From: Candidatus Sungiibacteriota bacterium
GTDB taxonomy: Bacteria > Patescibacteriota > Minisyncoccia > Sungbacterales > HO2-52-23
NCBI GenBank assembly: GCA_016432465.1
Contig: CP066690.1
Coordinates: 1 to 55,232, forward strand
DNA length: 55,232 nt
Direction of reading: 5' to 3'
Part shown: positions 7,154 through 44,835 of the stretch, one piece after another
Layout of the letters: each line of letters begins with the position of its first letter
How positions within the stretch are numbered: position 1 is the first letter of the stretch
Made by a program: the position numbers and the translations under genes
Notes under the pieces: model-generated
What the model saw: the letters and a program-made list of their open reading frames with translations, nothing else
What the model was told of the DNA's origin: nothing
Database searches by the model: none

Positions 7154-8471
7154 ATAGCCCGAACCGTGCAAAAATATCATCAACATGGCGTAGTTTGCTT
7201 TTAAGATCAAAGATTTTTTGTAATTCTCCAGTTTTTAATTCTGAAGGTATTCTCTCGTCTCCAAGAAGTACGGAAAGATAAGATTGGCCCTCGGTAACGG
7301 CCCTAAGAGCATCTTGTTGGCTTATGAGGTAGGCCGTCTCTGAGTTAAACCCAAAAGTTAGAAGCAAATCTCTAACCTCTGGTGAAAAAATTATTCCTTG
7401 AGTCAGGAGAAGGTTATTTGTGATTTTTTCTTGATTGACTTCAAGATCGGTAACTATTTCTTCCAGGGTCTTTAGCATATAATGTACTAGTTGAAAGGCA
7501 TCGGGCACGATGATTCTTTCTACGCTGGAATGGCTAATATCCCGTTCCCCCCAAGTCTTTATATGTTCCAGCATAATACCGGCATATCCGCGCACAACCG
7601 AGCTTAAACCGTCGAGCTGTTCCGAACGGATAGAGGCATTTCTTTTATGGGGCATACGCGATGAACCCTTTTGACCTTTTTGAAATACTTCTCGGAATTC
7701 CCCCACTTCGGTCTGGGCTAAAAGCCGGATATTCAAGAAAATATTCTCTAAGACCCCCGCCAAACTCGCTAAAGCGTTGAGTACATGGGCATGTCGATCA
7801 CGCAATATAATTTGTCTGGAGGTCCTCGCAGGAAAAAGATGGAGCAACCGTAAGGTCTGCCATTCCAATTCCGGAGCTAATCCACTGCCATAGATCCCTA
7901 CGGCCCCCGAAATTTTGGTATAAGCCATTTCATCGTAGGCCAGATGCAGAAACTTTTTCTGACGTATAAGATCATCGTACCAGCAAAGAAACTTAAGCCC
8001 AACCGTAATTGGTTCTGCGTGCTGGCCATGGGTTCTACCTATCATTGGGACAGCTTTATATAGGCGAGCTTTTTTTTCTAAAGCTTGGGCAACCTTTTCT
8101 ATACCCTCAAATATGATTTCAAACCCTCTGCGTACCAGGAGAGCCCTTGCCGAATCTTCTATATCATAACTGGTTAGGCCGTAGTGGAAATATTTTTGCA
8201 GTTCTTCTTCAAGGTGTTCAGAAACCGACTCTACAAACGCGATCAAGTCATGGCTGGTTCTTTTTTCGTACTCCTCTATTTTCCAAAGGGAAAAGACAGC
8301 TTGTTGTTTAATCCTTTTAAAGGTTCCGTCGGGGATGAGTTTGAGTTTCTCGCGCGCCTCAATTACTGCCAACTCAACAGTTAACCAAGCGGTAAACTTA
8401 TTTTGATCAGACCAAAGTGCAGTCATGGTGGGGATAGAATAGCGCGGAACCACCCTCGCCCCCTTATCCAC
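7152..8471 (-). CDS. purB: Adenylosuccinate lyase
   Basis: GRTHGQHAEP and GSSRMPHKRN signatures; true start may be a few codons downstream. Confidence 0.95.
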   Translation of the reverse strand: MDKGARVVPRYSIPTMTALWSDQNKFTAWLTVELAVIEAREKLKLIPDGTFKRIKQQAVFSLWKIEEYEKRTSHDLIAFVESVSEHLEEELQKYFHYGLTSYDIEDSARALLVRRGFEIIFEGIEKVAQALEKKARLYKAVPMIGRTHGQHAEPITVGLKFLCWYDDLIRQKKFLHLAYDEMAYTKISGAVGIYGSGLAPELEWQTLRLLHLFPARTSRQIILRDRHAHVLNALASLAGVLENIFLNIRLLAQTEVGEFREVFQKGQKGSSRMPHKRNASIRSEQLDGLSSVVRGYAGIMLEHIKTWGERDISHSSVERIIVPDAFQLVHYMLKTLEEIVTDLEVNQEKITNNLLLTQGIIFSPEVRDLLLTFGFNSETAYLISQQDALRAVTEGQSYLSVLLGDERIPSELKTGELQKIFDLKSKLRHVDDIFARFGL

Positions 8472-9473: not shown

Positions 9474-10865
9474 ATGATAAAGCTTTATAATACGCTCACC
9501 CGCAAAAAAGAACTTTTCCGCCCACTCCGCAAAGAGTGGGTTGGTTTATATACTTGTGGGCCTACGGTGTATAATTTTGCGCATATTGGCAATCTGCGGA
9601 CTTATATTTTTGAGGACGTACTGCGTCGCACTATAGAATATGCCGGCTATAAAGTTCGCCATGTTATGAATATTACGGATGTGGACGATAAAATTATTCG
9701 CGATGCCAAAAAAGCAAAAAAAACTATTTTTGAGTTTGTGAAACCATATGAGAAAGCATTTTTTGAGGATCTCAAAAAACTTAATATTGAAAAAGCGTGG
9801 AAATACCCAAAAGCAACCAAGCATATAACCGAAATGGTGCGACTGATAGCCTCTCTTCTCAAAAAGAAACTTGCTTATCAGGTTGATGGGTCAATTTATT
9901 TTGATATCTCCAAATTTAAGACCTATGGTCGCCTGTCCCGTCTGTCACACCGCGAGTTAAAGGCCGGAGCGCGGGTGGATAGTGATGAATATACCAAGCA
10001 CGACGTGCAGGATTTTGTGCTTTGGAAAGAAAAAAAGGCGGGAGAGCCGTCGTGGAAGGCAGTTTTTAGCGCGGGCGGACCCGCCTTCGCTAAAGCTACG
10101 GCGGGCAGGCCGGGTTGGCATTTGGAGTGTTCGGCAATGTCTATGAAATATCTCGGCCCCACTTTTGACATTCATGCCGGCGGCGTGGATTTGATATTTC
10201 CGCACCATGAAAACGAAATTGCCCAATCTGAAGGCGCAACCGGAAAAAAATTTGTAAGATTTTTTGTTGAGGGCGAACACCTTTTAGTTAACGGCGAGAA
10301 AATGTCTAAATCGCTTGGCAATGTTTTTACCCTGCGCGATATAGAGGCCAAAGGTTTTAATCCCCTCGTCTTTCGTTATCTTATTCTTACCTCTCACTAC
10401 CGTTCCAAACTTAATTTTACATGGGAGTCCTTGAAGGCGGCTCAAAACTCTTTAGAGCACTTGCAGAACTTTGTCATACGACTGCGTACCGAGCGCCACC
10501 GAGGTTTAACCTCTATGGCGGGATATCTACGAAAGTTCGGACGGGCGCTGGCTGATGACTTAGACATGCCAGAAGCCTTGTCTGTTGTCTGGGATATAGC
10601 GCATAACTACAACAAAAACCCCCGTAGATATAACTCAAAGGAAATTCTTACTCTTCTCTATGACGCTGACAGGGTTCTTGGACTAGGACTAAAAAGTCTA
10701 AAGTCAGAAGAAATCCCTGTGAAAATTCTTGCTTTAGTTAAAAAACGCGAAGAATATCGGAAAAACAAGGAGTGGACAAAGGCTGATAGGGTCCGCTCCC
10801 GGATTATAACTTGGGGCTATACTGTTGAAGATACACCCATGGGACCTCTGACAAGGAGGCGTTAA
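9474..10865 (+). CDS. cysS: Cysteine--tRNA ligase
   Basis: CGPTVY, HIGN, RPGWHLECSAM, DIHAGGVDLIFPHHENE, KMSKS. Confidence 0.98.
   Translation: MIKLYNTLTRKKELFRPLRKEWVGLYTCGPTVYNFAHIGNLRTYIFEDVLRRTIEYAGYKVRHVMNITDVDDKIIRDAKKAKKTIFEFVKPYEKAFFEDLKKLNIEKAWKYPKATKHITEMVRLIASLLKKKLAYQVDGSIYFDISKFKTYGRLSRLSHRELKAGARVDSDEYTKHDVQDFVLWKEKKAGEPSWKAVFSAGGPAFAKATAGRPGWHLECSAMSMKYLGPTFDIHAGGVDLIFPHHENEIAQSEGATGKKFVRFFVEGEHLLVNGEKMSKSLGNVFTLRDIEAKGFNPLVFRYLILTSHYRSKLNFTWESLKAAQNSLEHLQNFVIRLRTERHRGLTSMAGYLRKFGRALADDLDMPEALSVVWDIAHNYNKNPRRYNSKEILTLLYDADRVLGLGLKSLKSEEIPVKILALVKKREEYRKNKEWTKADRVRSRIITWGYTVEDTPMGPLTRRR
10080..10105. repeat. Palindromic element (family C) in frame within cysS, encoding PAFAKATA
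   Basis: CCCGCCTTCGCTAAAGCTACGGCGGG; related copy at 43904-43930. Confidence 0.8.
10494..10520. repeat. Short hairpin within the cysS C-terminal region (RHRGLTSMA)
   Basis: CGCCA-C-CGAGGTT-T-AACCTCT-A-TGGCG imperfect palindrome. Confidence 0.45.
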
Positions 10866-13025: not shown

Positions 13026-13601
13026 ATGGATAAACATCCTTCTTGGTACCGGGATTTAATTTATATCGCGGTTTTCGGGTTTATGATCGGTTTGCTATTT
13101 TCAGGATGCGCCAAGGTTAATGTTAATGCTACTGATTGGCGCACGCTAAAACCACAGGACTTCCCGCCGTTAGTAATTGACGGAGTTACTATTCCCTTAT
13201 CGCCGGACTTGCTTCAGGGTGTTGAAAATCAAGCTTGGATATTTGAAGACTATAGCTGGTCAAATAAAGAAGTACTGCGCAAAATACGGGTAAGGTTTTA
13301 TCGTATCCATGGTCTCGGATGGCGCGCTGCAGTAGAGTTGGAATGGCAACTTGAGAACCCTGCACATGAAGGCCTACCTTCTTACTATGCTGGAGGGGTG
13401 TATTCACCTAAGTTTTCAGGTAGGGGGCTAATTGCGGGATATTTTGGAACATACATACTTACACCTCAGGGATGGAATCGTCATCCCAGTAGTGGTACGC
13501 TTTTAAATCCTACAGGGTTTATTAAGTACCCCACCTCTTTGGAAGACGCAAAACCATTAGTTGAGTCGTTAATAAAAGAAAGTCTAAAAAAAGTAAAATA
13601 A
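13026..13601 (+). CDS. Hypothetical lipoprotein
   Basis: Hydrophobic leader ending in lipobox LFSGC. Confidence 0.7.
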   Translation: MDKHPSWYRDLIYIAVFGFMIGLLFSGCAKVNVNATDWRTLKPQDFPPLVIDGVTIPLSPDLLQGVENQAWIFEDYSWSNKEVLRKIRVRFYRIHGLGWRAAVELEWQLENPAHEGLPSYYAGGVYSPKFSGRGLIAGYFGTYILTPQGWNRHPSSGTLLNPTGFIKYPTSLEDAKPLVESLIKESLKKVK

Positions 13602-13624
13602 GGGTGCACCTGATGTGCTCCTTT

Positions 13625-14017
13625 TCATTTTGTTACAATTTTTTGTATTTCAACTTCGGTAAACGGTTGTCTATGCCCTTTTTTCTTGCGATACCTCGTT
13701 TTGGAATGATATTTAAAGACAAGGATTTTTTTACTCCTTCCCTGTTTTATAGTTTTGGCTTCTACCCTTGCCCCCTTTACGTACGGAGTTCCTATCTCTA
13801 TTTTTTTATCATTAGCCACAAGCAATACTTCGCCAAACACAACTTTCCCGCCTTCGCGGGCCGAAGCCGCTCCGGCGGGCGAAGGCCCGCCTTCTTTGCC
13901 GCCCTGCTGGGCGAGCCTCGCTTTTGGCGGGGCGTCTATTTTTTCAACTTTTAATTTTTGTCCCGCAGATACTAGGTATTGCTTACCGCCAGTTTTTATT
14001 ACTGCAAATTGTGTCAT
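13625..14017 (-). CDS. rplU: 50S ribosomal protein L21 carrying a 24-aa insertion
   Basis: FAVIKTGGKQY...KKKGHRQPFTEV; start taken at MTQF (14017). Confidence 0.95.
   Translation of the reverse strand: MTQFAVIKTGGKQYLVSAGQKLKVEKIDAPPKARLAQQGGKEGGPSPAGAASAREGGKVVFGEVLLVANDKKIEIGTPYVKGARVEAKTIKQGRSKKILVFKYHSKTRYRKKKGHRQPFTEVEIQKIVTK
13847..13930. repeat. Two in-frame palindromic insertions in rplU (33 bp and 39 bp)
   Basis: 13898-13930 resembles 25538-25565; the 39-bp unit is flanked by the direct repeat CCCGCCTTC (13847-13855 and 13886-13894). Confidence 0.8.
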
Positions 14018-14174
14018 ATGTTTTACCATCGGCTTGCCCCGCTATATCGCGAACGATATGGGCGGGGTTTTTTATTACGGCTAGCATATCAAAAGAAATA
14101 ATAACACCTCGCAAAATTCTTTGCAAGAAAAAGGTTTGCCCAGCGGTTTTGGGCCGCTGGGCTGTAAAACAATG

Positions 14175-14741
14175 TTATTTTCTCCGCTTCTCCTCCCGTC
14201 GCTCCTTAGCCAACCGCTGATTGATGCGGCGTTTCTCCGCCGCAGACAACTTCGCGTAGTTGGCCGGACGCACAAACGGGGCAAAAGCCCGTTCGGCGCC
14301 GGCGCGGGCAGGGTCAATCCCGTGGATAGTCCGGATGAGTCGGCCATCTACCTCCTGTATTCTGCGCTCGGTGGTTACGTCAACGGTATGGCTCCTGATT
14401 TTACCCCCAAGGAGCGTATCAAGATGTGTGATCCCCTTGGAGACATTTCCAGACCTCCATCCGCTGTTCGCGATGTCTGTAAACGCCATTCGCAGCAACG
14501 CTGGCCATAACGGCCACTCTGCGGCTATGCGCTCTGCCACAGAGTACTGCGAGCAGGCGTTCACCAAGCGTCGCGCCATTTCACGCAACTGCTTGTCGTT
14601 CGCCCCACCCGTGGGGGCATATCCCAAAAACCCCGAGCTGGCCTCCTTTATCTCGGCCTCCGTGTGTTCCCTCCAACGCGCCAGCGGGATGTTTCTCCGC
14701 AGGCACCAGAGGAGTATGGAGACGGTTGCATGTTGAACCAT
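14175..14741 (-). CDS. Hypothetical protein in visibly GC-richer DNA
   Basis: 188 aa ORF filling the rplU-rmuC gap; no recognised motif. Confidence 0.5.
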   Translation of the reverse strand: MVQHATVSILLWCLRRNIPLARWREHTEAEIKEASSGFLGYAPTGGANDKQLREMARRLVNACSQYSVAERIAAEWPLWPALLRMAFTDIANSGWRSGNVSKGITHLDTLLGGKIRSHTVDVTTERRIQEVDGRLIRTIHGIDPARAGAERAFAPFVRPANYAKLSAAEKRRINQRLAKERREEKRRK

Positions 14742-14819
14742 TTTCTCCTCCGTGCCCGCGGGGTACTGCCCGTGGCGGTTATGGGTTTATATTCATTTTA
14801 CCATATTTTTTTGATACTG

Positions 14820-15854
14820 TCAATCTTCAGTTGTCGGAGCTTCTAGAGTCACTACTTCTACCCCCGTCCCTTTGCCAGTAATTTTTAAAACATCTTTATC
14901 AATCTTTCCAAATTCTTTATAGGCGCTGTTATACATGTTTACGGTTGTCCCCAAATTACGACCCAATTTTTGCAGATACTCCTCGTAGGCCGCAAGGTGT
15001 CTGCGCAGATTTTCCACCTGTTTAATAATCTCTTGAGCCTGCTCCGAGATTTTTTGATTCTTAAGCCCCTGCAGAACGGTTTGCAAGTATGCCAGGAATG
15101 AAGTTGGCGAAACTATGATAACCTTTTTTTGTCCGGCATAATGTATCAGGTTTCTGGTGTCGTCAGTTACTGCTCCGACCTTGTTTATAAGAAGGTCATA
15201 ATATACCGCCTCCGAGGGAATAAACATAAAAGCAAAATCCATAGTTCTTTCCTCCGGCTTTACGTATTTAGAAGTTTCCTCAATACGAGTTTTTAAGTCC
15301 GAGACAAAGGCCTGCTCATAACGTTTCCGCTCTGCGTCTTCGCGGGCTTCAAGAATCCTATTGTAATTTTCAAGACTGAATTTAGAATCAACGGGGATGA
15401 TGCGTTTATCAACAAAAATGGCCGCATCCACAATAACGCCGTCCGCAAACCCATACTGCATTTTATAGGACCCGGGAGGAAGTACATTTTCTAAAACCGT
15501 CTGCAGATAATATTCGCCTAGAATCCCACGTTGTTTTGGGTTTTTTAAAATATCCTGAAGGTTACGCAGCTGATCGGCAAAACTAACCACCTGTTTATTG
15601 GTCTCATCCAGTTTAACCAGTTTTTCTGTTACTTCCTGAATAATGCGGGTACTCGTGCCGAATTGATTTTGTAACATACGGGATGATTCGGAAAGACGAT
15701 TGTCCAGGGTTCGTGATATTTCGCTGATTTGCCGCTGCAGCATTAAAAACACATTTTCTTCCTGCGGCTTTTGGGTGCGTTTTAATAAAAACCAAAATAC
15801 CCCGGCAAAACCGGCGATAAGGAGCACAATTAAAATGATAAATTCAGGGCTCAA
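14820..15854 (-). CDS. rmuC: DNA recombination protein RmuC
   Basis: N-terminal TM, KQRGILGE, IPVDSKFSLENY, FAFMFIPSEAVY, IVSPTSF; probable TTG start at 15854. Confidence 0.93.
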   Translation of the reverse strand: MSPEFIILIVLLIAGFAGVFWFLLKRTQKPQEENVFLMLQRQISEISRTLDNRLSESSRMLQNQFGTSTRIIQEVTEKLVKLDETNKQVVSFADQLRNLQDILKNPKQRGILGEYYLQTVLENVLPPGSYKMQYGFADGVIVDAAIFVDKRIIPVDSKFSLENYNRILEAREDAERKRYEQAFVSDLKTRIEETSKYVKPEERTMDFAFMFIPSEAVYYDLLINKVGAVTDDTRNLIHYAGQKKVIIVSPTSFLAYLQTVLQGLKNQKISEQAQEIIKQVENLRRHLAAYEEYLQKLGRNLGTTVNMYNSAYKEFGKIDKDVLKITGKGTGVEVVTLEAPTTED

Positions 15855-21303: not shown

Positions 21304-22299
21304 CTACTCTTTTAGGGTCTCCCTTATTTTCTTCATAATTTCGTCCCTAACTTTTGGGTTATCTTTTAAATAATTTTTGGCGTTATCAAACCCTTGTCCC
21401 AGCTTTATAATGCCGTAGGTAAGACTGGCGCCGGATTTCTTAATAACCTCGTATTTTATACCTGTATTTAAAATGTCCGCCTCGTAAGAAATACCTTCGT
21501 TATAGAAAATATCAAATTCTGCGGTTTTAAACGGCGGGGCAACTTTATTTTTTACTATTTTGGCTCTATGCCGGTTGCCTATTATTTCTTCTCCTTTTTT
21601 AATTTGTGCGCTTCGGCGCAAATCAACTCGCACCGAGGAATAAAATTTTAGGGCTTTTCCGCCGGGGGTGGTTTCCGGATTGCCCCACATTATACCAATT
21701 TGCATCCGGATCTGATTTATAAAAATAATAACGGTTTTGGACTTGGAGACTATGGCTGTGAGTTTGCGCAGCGCATGCGACATCAGACGCGCCTGAAGCC
21801 CTATGTGTTGTTCTCCCATTTCTCCCTCTATTTCTGCCTTGGGGGTCAAGGCAGCTACCGAGTCCACGACAATAACGTCCACCGCATTGGAACGCACTAA
21901 AGATTCTACGATCTCAAGGGCTTGTTCTCCGGTGTCCGGCTGTGAGATTAAAAGGTCGTTTATTTTAACGCCTATTTTTTTGGCATATTCCGGGTCCAGA
22001 GCATGTTCCGCATCCACAAAAGCGCAAAGCCCGCCCTTGCGCTGGGCCTCGCGTATGATATGAAGCGCCAGTGTTGTTTTTCCGCTTGATTCGGGGCCAA
22101 AAATCTCAATAATACGTCCCCGCGGCACACCGCCCACTCCTAGGGCGTTGTCTAACGAAAAAGAACCCGTGGGAATTACGTCCACGTCCACCCGCCTTGC
22201 TTCGCCCAATTTCATTATGGCACCCTCTCCGTATTTTTCCTGAATTTCTTTGACCGCAGAATCCAAAAGTTTTATTTTGTCTAATTTTTCCTCTTTCAT
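21304..22299 (-). CDS. recA: Recombinase RecA
   Basis: [36 protein letters not shown]; no intein. Confidence 0.99.
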
Positions 22300-22625
22300 C
22301 CCGATAGTGTTAGGAAGCGCTTTACTCTTTGTTTAAGATAAGCCCTTCCTTGACCTGATTTAAGCTGTTTTTCTCTTGACTGAGCATCGGCTTTATTTCT
22401 ATACGCTTCATAGTATATCAACTCAGATGGACCTCGACCTTTTGTCCAAGAATTATATTTACCCTCATTGTGTTCTTTAAAGCGCTTCCGTAAATCCATC
22501 GTAAAACCGACATACCATCTGCTATTTCTTTGGCTGCGTAATACATAGGATTTATTACGTATGGAAACATGCAGTAAGACGCGTTCCGCATACATTGATA
22601 TCCTACAGACCGCATTTAGTTCCAT
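22296..22625 (-). CDS. Small GIY-YIG nuclease; start uncertain
   Basis: YVLRS...WYVGFT.DLRKR..EHN...YYE...A..RE..LK; stop overlaps the recA ATG (ATGA). Confidence 0.8.
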
Positions 22626-25520: not shown

Positions 25521-25620
25521 TTTATCCACGCACCAGCCGCCAGAGGCGAGCCTCGCTTGTGGCGGGAAGACCACGGGCTCGGGAAGTCAGACTTCCCATG
25601 GGAAGTCTGACTTCCCGTGG
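25521..25620. repeat. Family A repeat followed by a perfect 36-bp tandem palindrome (GGGAAGTCAGACTTCCC family D)
   Basis: 25521-25551 is 30/31 identical to 44779-44809; 25581-25616 is a perfect palindrome. Confidence 0.85.
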
Positions 25621-35370: not shown

Positions 35371-35400
35371 TCCGCCGGAGGCGGACCCGCCTCTGGCGGG
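35371..35400. repeat. Family A palindrome, intergenic copy
   Basis: TCCGCCGGAGGCGGACCCGCCTCTGGCGGG. Confidence 0.85.
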
Positions 35401-35805: not shown

Positions 35806-35832
35806 GGAAGTAAGCTCTTGGAGAGCGCCCTT

Positions 35833-35849
35833 GGGAAGTCAGACTTCCC
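35833..35849. repeat. Family D palindrome GGGAAGTCAGACTTCCC
   Basis: Same as the units at 25581-25616; variant at 39709-39725. Confidence 0.75.
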
Positions 35850-39694: not shown

Positions 39695-40306
39695 CTACTC
39701 GGCAGCAAGGGAAGTCTGACTTCTCAAGCTGCCGCGTTTTCTGTCGGACGAAAGATAAAACCGCCACAATTTATTCTTCCAGAGACCTGCATACTCCACC
39801 CCTATTCTTTTTCCTCGCCTGATTTGGCGGGGATTTATGTTAGTGCCGCGATCCTCAATCCAAAGGCCGCTCGTTTTTATTGCGGGTTTTCCGTTGAAAC
39901 GTTTATTAATTTTGAAACAGCGGCATACCTTTCCCGGTCCAATGATATGTAATACCCCAACATTCTCAAGTTTGTTGGTGTGTTGTGATGGAATGACTAC
40001 CGAACGCACCAATAAGGCGGCGGGGTACCCCTTTCTTTCGGTCACGATATTAAGACAGTGGTGTATTCCGTAAATAAGATAAACGTACCAGCATCCCGGC
40101 TTGTCAAACATTACTTTAGTTCTCTCAGTCTTTCCGCGGGAAGCATGCGAGGCCTTGTCTTTCGGTCCCACATACGCTTCAACTTCTGTAATCATACCCG
40201 CGACAGTTTTTTTACCTATTTTCCGCACCAAAAATTTACCCAATAATTCTTGGGCAACTTTAAGCGTAGGACGGTTAAAAAATGTTGGCAAAAGAACTTT
40301 TTTCAT
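39695..40306 (-). CDS. mpg: 3-methyladenine DNA glycosylase (MPG family)
   Basis: FFNRPTLKVAQELLGK, ITEVEAY, YVYLIYGIHHCLNIV, GPGK, RIGV. Confidence 0.93.
   Translation of the reverse strand: MKKVLLPTFFNRPTLKVAQELLGKFLVRKIGKKTVAGMITEVEAYVGPKDKASHASRGKTERTKVMFDKPGCWYVYLIYGIHHCLNIVTERKGYPAALLVRSVVIPSQHTNKLENVGVLHIIGPGKVCRCFKINKRFNGKPAIKTSGLWIEDRGTNINPRQIRRGKRIGVEYAGLWKNKLWRFYLSSDRKRGSLRSQTSLAAE
39950..39985. repeat. Family B element in frame in mpg, encoding QHTNKLENVGVL
   Basis: 29/36 nt identical to the ychF copy. Confidence 0.85.
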
Positions 40307-43652: not shown

Positions 43653-43892
43653 TCACAGAAGGTGTCTTTTCAGGAATGCTCTGCCAGAGCCAGATTTGAG
43701 GTATTTCTCGAAAGCAAGCGCCTTCTTTTTGTCGTTGAACGTGCAGTACCACACTAATTTCCACGGACGTTTACGCGAGGTGTAGTCGTCACCTCCTTGA
43801 TTATGGACTTTCAATCGTTCCTTCAAATCTTCTGTAAATCCTTTATACAAACTTCCATCTTTTAAACTTTTTGTTATGTAGATGTAATACAT
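43653..43892 (-). CDS. Solo GIY-YIG nuclease (79 aa)
   Basis: MYYIYITKS...YKGFTEDLKERL..HN...PWKLVWY...A..FEKYLKSGSGR. Confidence 0.9.
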   Translation of the reverse strand: MYYIYITKSLKDGSLYKGFTEDLKERLKVHNQGGDDYTSRKRPWKLVWYCTFNDKKKALAFEKYLKSGSGRAFLKRHLL

Positions 43893-43903
43893 AAAAAAAC
43901 ATG

Positions 43904-44020
43904 CCCGCCTCCGCACAAGGCTACGGCGGGTCCTTCGCTCTGCTTAGGAGCAGTAGTCTTTCAAGTACATTAAAGGCGGCTGTGCCGGCCGAAGCTCTGA
44001 GCAGAGCGAAGAGCGAAGGA
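43904..44020. repeat. Palindromic repeats between the tRNA-Glu 3' end and the GIY-YIG gene
   Basis: Family C copy at 43904-43930; IR TCCTTCGCTCT (43931-43941) / AGAGCGAAGGA (44010-44020). Confidence 0.8.
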
Positions 44021-44094
44021 CGGCCCCAATGGGATTCGAACCCATGATCTTCTGGATGAGAACCAGATATCCTAGACCACTAGACGATGGGGCC
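44021..44094 (-). tRNA. tRNA-Glu(CTC)
   Basis: GGCCCCA/TGGGGCC acceptor, TCTGG-TTCTCAT-CCAGA anticodon arm, GGTTCGAATCC. Confidence 0.96.
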
Positions 44095-44781: not shown

Positions 44782-44835
44782 ATCCACGCCCCAGCCGCCA
44801 GAGGCGAGCGATGCTGGGCCACTGGCGGCTGGCGG
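44779..44835. repeat. Family A-type repeat
   Basis: 44779-44809 nearly identical to 25521-25551. Confidence 0.75.

Follow-up and report, generated by a model that had tools for sequence, protein, structure and literature searches.

Introduction

GC-rich palindromes of 20–40 nt that carry a GTAG or CGTC tag and occur in many copies were described by Di Nocera et al. (2013), including RPE-4 and RPE-6 of Rickettsia conorii (PMC3733652). Some of these tagged repetitive extragenic palindromes (REPs) lie wholly within known genes, to which they add 20–30 residues; they often come as dimers or in groups, a gene may contain two such insertions, and it has been proposed that the tolerated insertions sit in flexible loops (PMC3733652). 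Here we describe two in-frame inserts in rplU, the gene encoding ribosomal protein bL21 (L21 in the following), in positions 1 to 55,232 of contig CP066690.1 from a Candidatus Sungiibacteriota bacterium; this whole stretch of 55,232 nt is referred to as the window. Both inserts are probably tiny, gene-less, GC-rich hairpin repeats that landed in a permissive loop of L21 and are read through.

Further systems come close to this behavior. The Rickettsia palindromic elements (RPEs), as summarized in a review of miniature inverted-repeat transposable elements, comprise ten Rickettsia-specific families of ~150 bp, each encoding a conserved peptide; they insert in frame into unrelated housekeeping genes and are read through in a way that is compatible with protein folding (PMC10969869). 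REP doublets forming hairpins (REPINs) consist of two inverted REPs and a spacer, and clusters result as additional copies enter older ones or settle beside them (PMC3116915). REPINs are extragenic and species-specific and are tied to a single-copy gene for a REP-associated tyrosine transposase (RAYT) flanked by the same REPs; in Pseudomonas fluorescens SBW25, 14 of 1,067 REP 16-mers overlap genes (PMC3116915). In mitochondria, GC clusters, double-hairpin elements and repetitive hairpin-forming elements occupy variable sites, both between genes and within genes for proteins and rRNA, and are kept in transcripts (PMC2800124).

Results

Two in-frame inserts lie in one loop of L21

The features of the L21 gene that matter here are given below by position in the window. 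L-numbers (L001, L010 etc.) denote loci from other genomes or metagenome contigs, and taxon labels are those of the depositors.

13625..14017, minus strand: rplU, ribosomal protein bL21, 130 aa (PF00829, E 3.6e-32)
13898-13930, minus strand: insert 1, 33 nt, codons CCG..GGC, read PPKARLAQQGG, absent from L009 and L010
13886-13897, minus strand: native codons AAA GAA GGC GGG (KEGG) between the inserts, matching AAA GAA GGC GGA of the empty site in L010
13847-13885, minus strand: insert 2, 39 nt net as counted by codon, read PSPAGAASAREGG
13847-13855, plus strand: first copy of the 9-nt direct repeat CCCGCCTTC, common to other unit 2 copies (see below)
13886-13894, plus strand: second copy of CCCGCCTTC; 13886-13889 are the end of unit 2 and 13890-13894 are native L21 codons (GAAGG)

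The protein reads MTQFAVIKTGGKQYLVSAGQKLKVEKIDA-(PPKARLAQQGG)-KEGG-(PSPAGAASAREGG)-KVVFGE with the inserts in parentheses, the residues upstream ending in EKIDA; an ATG further upstream at 14029 would yield 134 aa. The match to PF00829 consists of two stretches, which are split by the insert, and L21 chains in the PDB match the protein with a best E of 7.7e-25. The insertion loop is located between the strand ending in ...VEKID and the strand beginning with KVVF, and the segment around it comprises 40 residues in the window as compared to 16 in 112 of the 120 best homologues. Deletion of both inserts restores this 16-residue segment. Thus, the claim of the first-pass annotation that two in-frame inserts interrupt an otherwise normal L21 held in full, and its reading, coordinates and CCCGCCTTC repeat proved accurate wherever they were checked.

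Together the inserts add 72 nt; both are multiples of three and free of stop codons, and the resulting frame predicts junction-spanning peptides such as LAQQGGK and EGGPSPAGAASAR. Positions 13846-13922 represent the longest stretch of ≥79% GC in the window, which averages ~45% GC, and as RNA the inserted region folds with ~-52 kcal/mol over 100 nt. In an AlphaFold2 model the beta core of L21 is kept, residues 26-57 are devoid of secondary structure, and the predicted local distance difference test score falls below 50 at residues 31-38 and 43-52. The solved bacterial L21 structures in the PDB all lack an insert at this loop; the alignment breaks at query residues 28-57, and the corresponding position in L21 of Thermus thermophilus is at residues ~27-31.

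For comparison we used Logan contigs of four separately assembled groundwater runs that belong to a single study. Positions 13600-14100 (501 nt) are identical in the contigs of all four runs, with 0 differences, joints or indels. Since four separate assemblies agree exactly, the inserts in L21 are not the result of mis-assembly.

Insert 1 belongs to an element found in many phyla

The repeats as delimited by their other copies are subsequently designated unit 1 and unit 2. Two copies of unit 1 are present in the window:

13898-13931, plus strand: unit 1 in L21, G-CCGCC-CTGCTG-GGCGAGCCTCGC-TTTT-GGCGG-G, with a 6-nt spacer
25537-25566, plus strand: intergenic copy (CCGCCAGAGGCGAGCCTCGCTTGTGGCGGG), DNA fold -11.5 kcal/mol, z -3.64

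The first-pass annotation had noticed a resemblance of insert 1 to an intergenic repeat at 25538-25565. Indeed, the 23-mer GGCGAGCCTCGCTTTTGGCGGGG (13910-13932) recurs at 25545-25567 with 2 mismatches, a match that was reached in 0 of 100 shuffles. The canonical form of unit 1 is CCGCC-NNN-GGCGAGCCTCGCC-NNN-GGCGG, of which the L21 copy is a variant longer by 3 nt. Other contigs of the same groundwater runs match the L21 region in unit 1 only, i.e. from 13896/8 to 13931/4.

We scanned a collection holding one genome per prokaryote species with the pattern CCGCC-N(2-10)-GGCGAGCCTCGC-NNNN-GGCGG, which yielded at least 120 stretches. Among the matches listed, to which all counts for unit 1 in the following refer, 11 lie in genomes of >60% GC and look like chance matches, and the low-GC loci provided the 114 copies that were analyzed. 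The other carriers are all metagenome-assembled genomes (MAGs) and include many groups of the candidate phyla radiation (CPR), Planctomycetota/Brocadiaceae and Omnitrophota, and further Ignavibacteriota, Elusimicrobia, Melainabacteria and MAGs labelled Gammaproteobacteria. The copies are followed by G in 113/114 cases and preceded by G in 104/114.

The 5' spacer of the low-GC copies measures 3, 6 or 9 nt in 114/114 cases, in coding-like and noncoding-like settings alike, as compared to 2, 3, 5, 6 and 8 nt in the chance matches of high-GC genomes. The length of unit 1, which ranges from 30 to 36 nt, therefore varies by whole codons, and it is due to its 6-nt spacer that the L21 copy has 33 rather than 30 nt. 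The longer spacers are not simply explained by one extra base pair plus one loop base, since plain hexaloops occur among the 6-nt spacers. Unit 1 can be folded as two small hairpins (CGCC-NNN-GGCG twice), the loops of which are the variable triplets, or as one long hairpin. When all six frames of the 114 copies are considered, 20 of 684 readings contain a stop. Copies within open frames (≥50 codons open on both sides) amount to 52/114 (46%) versus 349/570 (61%) for random positions of the same loci; all six readings are used in open frames, and PPKARLAQQGG represents the common PPxARLAKGG reading, which is also found in open reading frames (ORFs) of other phyla. Another CCGCC/GGCGG motif is present within 30 nt of 26% of the copies versus 14% of control positions (p 0.001).

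The DNA folds of unit 1 in L21 have z-scores of -1.75 and -2.39, and canonical copies reach -3.6 to -3.8. As the L21 copies fold only modestly beyond what their composition provides, we base the case for an element on recurrence and set folding energy aside. Canonical unit 1 had no match in 2.9 million viral contigs, i.e. there was no sign of phage carriage there. Rfam holds no family for the hairpins and recognizes a single tRNA in the window. No paper containing the core string GGCGAGCCTCGCC was found, and in the literature searched on elements of palindromic or intragenic type from Patescibacteria, CPR or Parcubacteria we came across no description of the unit 1 family.

Two further observations concern the surroundings of unit 1. 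Tandem heptamers, the same on both sides, frame many 30-nt copies (L022, L040, L081, L109, L015, L031 and others): in L022, the copies at 2435, 3156 and 7202 are all enclosed by two AACGCTG on either side, and in L040 the heptamer is GAAATTG. Copies of one genome share their heptamer, but each genome has a different one, and the heptamer thus looks like part of a larger element and not like a target duplication; the L21 copy is without heptamers. In addition, L003 carries unit 1 in frame at 7943-7984 in the gene of an 833-aa tetratricopeptide (TPR) repeat protein, and the same Sungbacteria genome has unit 1 in L21.

Insert 2 is a second dispersed unit and its direct repeat is largely its own

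The extent of the second unit follows from its other copies:

13847-13889, coding strand minus: unit 2, 43 nt; most other copies have one additional C after 13866

The coding strand of unit 2 reads CCCGCC-GGA-[GCGGCTTCGGCCCGC]-GAA-GGCGGG, which follows the plan of unit 1. For each of the runs X1, X2 and X4, ~5-8 other listed contigs match positions 13845/7-13889 and nothing else. These copies differ by 1-4 substitutions, have unrelated flanks and usually carry the extra C after 13866; 19 of the 21 listed unit 2 records end at 13889. They are not L21 genes, because they continue without the CCTTC that is expected of an L21 orthologue. The depth of the contigs with unit 2 ranges from 2 to 174 as compared to 76, 22 and 55 for the genome studied here, and given these differences most copies probably belong to other organisms or to collapsed repeats.

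These copies also bear on the 9-nt direct repeat, which had been likened to a target-site duplication in the first-pass annotation. The repeat itself is real. However, the other copies share 13847-13855 and stop at 13889, and consequently the first CCCGCCTTC as well as CCCG at 13886-13889 belong to the unit; the native part of the second CCCGCCTTC is CCTTC (13890-13894) only. Empty sites read GAA GGC GGA or GAG GGT GGA at the position of the second CCCGCCTTC. Thus, the duplication of a 9-bp target had to be given up, and any target duplicated at insert 2 would comprise at most 4 nt (CGGG).

The extra C of the other copies restores a perfect GCGGGC-CGAA-GCCCGC hairpin; the L21 copy is without this C and has a net length divisible by three. 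The DNA fold z of unit 2 in L21 is about -0.8. A strict scan of the metagenome for CGCCTTCG-N8-18-TCCGGCGGGCGAAGGCC returned six stretches of one organism with 65-75% GC and no low-GC copies. These six contigs (L131-L136, 65-75% GC) contain a ~100-nt repeat bounded by TCCCTCCCCC...GGAGGGAGGGGG that includes both halves of unit 2 with a 20-nt module in between, indicating that such modules nest.

The same loop is empty in the closest homologues and occupied by various inserts in others

The 16-residue segment is insert-free in 112 of the 120 nearest L21 homologues. L009 and L010, whose L21 proteins are the closest to that of the window outside the insert (~80% amino-acid identity), have empty sites reading AAC GCC CGC GAG GGT GGA AAA and GAC GCC AAA GAA GGC GGA AAG, respectively. 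The remaining 8/120 homologues contain a loop insert of at least 6 kinds, which differ in sequence and length. In L002, L003 and L007, the same loop is occupied by the core of unit 1 in reverse orientation, and the spacer has 9 nt in all three; this orientation, GGC GAG CCT CGC CAT GGG CGG, is read GEPRHGR. L002 has a second insert in L21, GTCCGCCGTAGCCTTGGCGAAGGCGGA. A different 51-nt insert lies between two GAAGGCGGG in L006, and the L21 loops of L137 and L138 contribute two further palindromes.

Unit 2 is present in the L21 gene of L001, where 47/49 nt are identical to the window and both differences fall into one tetraloop. Overall identity between window and L001 is ~72% for L21 and ~72% for DnaB, and it collapses at the edges of unit 2. 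This pattern fits separate, fairly recent arrivals of unit 2 in the two lineages. As the main cause of the shared unit we also considered that the window and L001 had recombined a segment of L21, and rejected this because identity falls at the edges of the unit. In a weakly resolved tree of L21, built from 105 columns, the carriers do not group together; 7 changes are needed on the best tree, and the well-supported branches force at least 3.

Taken together, units 1 and 2 are both dispersed repeats that are missing from the L21 loop of the nearest relatives, and related lineages have been hit repeatedly at this loop.

Related units in the window

Three further features resemble the units in L21:

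2084..2111, minus strand: sister unit CCGCCAGAGGCGGGTCCGCCTCGGGCGG, in frame in the Gly/Phe-rich region of DnaJ, 10-residue reading, fold z -3.81
10071..10100, plus strand: in-frame insert in CysS, 30 nt, read AGGPAFAKAT, adjoining an RPGWH motif; boundaries uncertain by a few nt
44795..44835, plus strand: intergenic composite sharing TTTTATCCACGCMCCAGCCGCCAGAGGCGAGC with the 25520 copy, repeat family D13

The unit in dnaJ has a near-identical intergenic twin at 35372-35399. The 10-residue insert of CysS, whose gene spans 9474-10865, is absent from CysS of L001, L002 and L010, the empty site in L002 being GGA GAA GGC. Window positions 10078-10109 (32 nt), which overlap this insert and extend 9 nt past its drawn 3' end, are identical in L109, and the insert matches the second L21 insert of L002 in 22/24 nt. 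GC islands in RpoC (28478) and DnaK (3832) were also considered as insertions and rejected, since the residues are conserved and there is no change in length.

A small nuclease gene adjoins one of the palindromes

A candidate for a mobilizing enzyme is provided by the following pair of features:

43656..43892, minus strand: GIY-YIG nuclease gene, 79 aa, candidate mobilizer (PF01541, E 6.7e-18)
43903..43930, minus strand: palindrome CCCGCCGTAGCCTTGTGCGGAGGCGGGC of the CysS-insert subfamily, between a tRNA gene and the GIY-YIG gene

The palindrome follows the tRNA gene and a foldback, and the GIY-YIG gene is located ten bases downstream of it. Homologues were searched for with tblastn, which found eight, only one of which was found by a regular expression. 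They are present in 6/120 loci compared, from which we claim no enrichment; in 5 of these 6 loci, tRNA-like sequence or hairpins of the CCGCC/GGCGG type adjoin the GIY-YIG gene. On these grounds, copying of the units in trans by ~80-aa GIY-YIG nucleases that adjoin such palindromes and tRNA genes is put forward as a tentative candidate mechanism, and we consider it rather doubtful at this stage.

Positions 4990-5600 of L119 start with a partial tRNA and two hairpin units of the form CCACCGCC-TTC/TAC-GGCGGGGTCCC; next come a GIY-YIG gene for 81 aa and a complete tRNA, and the hairpin unit then appears once more, which is the same layout as in window 43656-44094. A second small GIY-YIG homologue of the window (22323-22547) is 40% identical to the one at 43656-43892 and located inside a 109-aa ORF (22296-22625); there is no CCGCC/GGCGG hairpin immediately upstream of it.

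Neighborhood of rplU and other repeats

The neighborhood of rplU is the same as in relatives, with RmuC on one side and RecR, DnaB and CysS on the other. In relatives, rplU is directly preceded by rmuC, and the window has ~800 nt more between the two genes. These extra bases (14030-14820) are more GC-rich and include a 188-aa ORF (14175-14741, minus strand) without a match in Pfam, and at 14037-14073 a GC hairpin is followed by a run of T. A second repeat family, GGGAAGTCAGACTTCCC, has four copies in the window (25578-25620, 35830-35849 and 39706-39725), two of which adjoin each other and directly follow the intergenic copy of unit 1. Finally, an identical 33-nt palindrome, TTTGTACACTTAAAAGCGATCGCTTTTAAGTGT, at 537-569 and 1159-1191 brackets a gene for 184 aa (587-1141).

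Discussion

How the units compare with known elements

Unit 1 resembles intragenic REPs, i.e. imperfect palindromes of 20-40 nt in many copies, in its length of 30-36 nt and its 114 copies. REPs possess an unpaired GTAG or CGTC tag at one end, whereas the units described here have no tag: the 114 copies have G before CCGCC...GGCGG and G behind it, followed by variable sequence. A CGTC at 13933-13936, one base beyond unit 1 in L21, corresponds to the native codons GAC GCC and is present at empty sites as well, and in the CysS-type subfamily GTAG is found inside the hairpin and not at its end. Moreover, REPs are predominantly extragenic, whereas 46% of the unit 1 copies (52/114) reside in open frames; near-identity of sequence across phyla and a spacer that changes in steps of 3 nt only set unit 1 further apart from REPs.

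The likeness to elements of the RPE-1 type lies in the in-frame insertion into unrelated genes, which was observed twice in L21, in CysS, in DnaJ and for the 52 copies embedded in ORFs; read-through is presumed from the frames. In contrast to RPEs, the units measure 30-44 nt, their hosts are free-living or episymbiotic uncultivated bacteria of several phyla, and because the units are read in all six frames there is no single conserved peptide. The first-pass annotation had invoked RPEs as precedent. This analogy applies to the in-frame behavior but not to the family, since RPEs are ~150 bp long as compared to 30-44 nt here, and intragenic REPs are closer. Its central proposal, that short selfish palindromes are colonizing L21, gained support: the units are dispersed and occur outside L21 (unit 1 at 25537-25566, in other contigs and in at least 120 stretches; unit 2 in other contigs), and alignment with close relatives revealed empty sites in L009 and L010 and no sharing of the extra residues.

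REPINs have a total length of roughly 70-110 nt. Unit 1 shares with them the doublet of short hairpins as the unit as well as clustering (26% versus 14% of control positions), but we did not observe the other REPIN traits for the units described here, namely an extragenic location, restriction to one species and, among the 12 window proteins scanned against Pfam, a single-copy RAYT gene bordered by such REPs. Nesting of mobile-looking repeats of ~21-27 nt inside one another was reportedly observed in heterocyst-forming cyanobacteria by Elhai et al. in 2008, which we mention as a lead only. Like the mitochondrial GC clusters, the units are GC-rich, structured hairpins that are spread through a genome of lower GC content, but the mitochondrial clusters belong to an organelle and have unrelated sequences, whereas here one sequence is found in bacterial chromosomes across phyla. 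Terminal inverted repeats together with a target-site duplication of fixed length are not what we find: the CCGCC/GGCGG arms are inverted, and the duplication flanking insert 1 amounts to ≤1 nt.

Thus, the behavior as such is already known from intragenic REPs and from the RPEs of Rickettsia. New are the hosts, the near-identity across phyla, a genic share close to random and length classes of whole codons.

A model for the inserts in L21

The two units would be subfamilies of a broader set defined by CCGCC/GGCGG arms around a short central hairpin. An enzyme encoded elsewhere would copy them in trans, and copies would have landed in the one loop of L21 that tolerates extra residues (~27-31 of Thermus thermophilus L21). 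The inserts persist because they add whole codons and are free of stops. Most probably, ribosomes read through them, which would give a Gly/Ala/Pro-rich, disordered loop extension of 24 residues. The argument is that the frame is preserved by the two inserts and by unit 1 in all its length variants, which would be needless if the segment were skipped or trimmed.

The loop may be a hot spot for two reasons. It is presumably permissive structurally, with selection filtering insertions since L21 is small and largely bound to rRNA. In addition, the native GAA GGC GGN resembles an element arm, NNN-GGCGG(G), which may favor joining at short homology. Such joining next to arm-like sequence is plausible, yet not separable from the circumstance that Gly-rich loops are rich in GGC.

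Alternative explanations

According to one alternative, the inserts arose locally and without mobility, the loop being hypervariable and the palindromes being formed by slippage or template switching on native GAAGGCGGG. The start of insert 2 is complementary to the native codons upstream (GAAGGCGGG followed by CCTTCGCCCGCC), and the length of the L21 loop varies among relatives, as this scenario would predict. However, hairpins made de novo would not converge on GGCGAGCCTCGCC, and unit 1 is nearly letter-perfect in many phyla and in unrelated genes. Local origin is largely refuted by the dispersed copies of the 43-nt and 34-nt units in contigs with unrelated flanks, those of unit 2 diverging at 13889/13890, where an L21 orthologue would continue with CCTTC. 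We therefore regard it as very improbable.

We attribute the same slight weight to a selected, functional extension of L21 that serves an unusual ribosome of ultra-small bacteria. An intact frame, conserved synteny and fixation of the insert in four samples would suit such a role. Against it, only 8/120 close homologues have any insert and these differ in sequence and length, the inserted segment is predicted to be disordered, and the same DNA occurs elsewhere in other frames, on the other strand and between genes.

It is a shade less probable still that the inserts are not translated, through ribosome bypass as in phage T4 gene 60 or through removal from the mRNA. In bypass cassettes of this type, take-off occurs at a stop or hungry codon and the codons for take-off and landing match; phages are known to have such cassettes on mobile elements (bioRxiv 10.1101/2022.08.31.505936). 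Insert 2 does lie between identical codons, GGG...GGG, and the RNA of the region has a strong fold, but the site where take-off would have to occur shows neither a stop nor a rare codon. Both inserts are in-frame, stop-free multiples of three, the spacer of unit 1 changes in steps of three nt in 114/114 copies, and unit 2 in L21 lacks the extra C of most copies; keeping the frame in this manner would be pointless if the segment were skipped.

An artefact of assembly or sequencing, for which one could quote that the carriers of unit 1 apart from the high-GC chance matches are all MAGs, can practically be discounted, since the 501 nt are identical in four separately assembled runs, copies from different organisms and studies have different loops and flanks yet keep frames, and relatives have diverged versions at the same site.

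Several observations nevertheless weigh against the view that the inserts are mobile hairpin repeats that are read through. No presence/absence polymorphism of the inserts was seen in the reads, i.e. no movement was caught. A classical target-site duplication was not found at the L21 inserts, and no transposase, RAYT or Y1 protein was found among the 13 proteins scanned against Pfam (12 from the window, a minority of its ORFs). Unit 2 has no second copy in the window, and the metagenome copies are probably in other organisms. Constraint on the hairpin, instead of recent insertion, could account for the near-identity of unit 2 in the window and L001, and since the L21 tree is poorly resolved, gains are not separable from precise losses. 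The L21 copies of the units fold barely better than shuffled sequence, and translation of the insert is presumed only from frame and length.

Significance

In-frame selfish palindromes have so far been treated as an oddity of few genomes, namely of Rickettsia and of a minority of REPs. Here, a 103-residue ribosomal protein was hit twice within 12 codons, the loop was hit again in related lineages, and unit 1, among the matches listed, resides in open frames at about three quarters of the rate of random positions. If the interpretation as mobile hairpin repeats is true, such elements would be a general and overlooked source of protein length variation in uncultivated bacteria and a warning for the annotation and alignment of phylogenomic marker genes, L21 included. 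It would also raise the question of which enzyme copies a 30-nt hairpin.

A bolder proposal, which we offer as speculative and judge unlikely in its full form, is that unit 1 and its sister units represent a coding-adapted class of ~30-nt mobile DNA that is nearly stop-free in six frames, varies in length by whole codons and would therefore enter protein loops with almost the same ease as intergenic sites. Such DNA would spread across phyla, be copied by structure-specific GIY-YIG nucleases of ~80 aa whose genes adjoin these hairpins at tRNA genes, and join by short homology at GGCGG-like target codons, e.g. GAA GGC GGG of L21. If true, few known mobile units would be as small, and essential proteins of bacteria with small genomes would steadily receive new surface loops from them.

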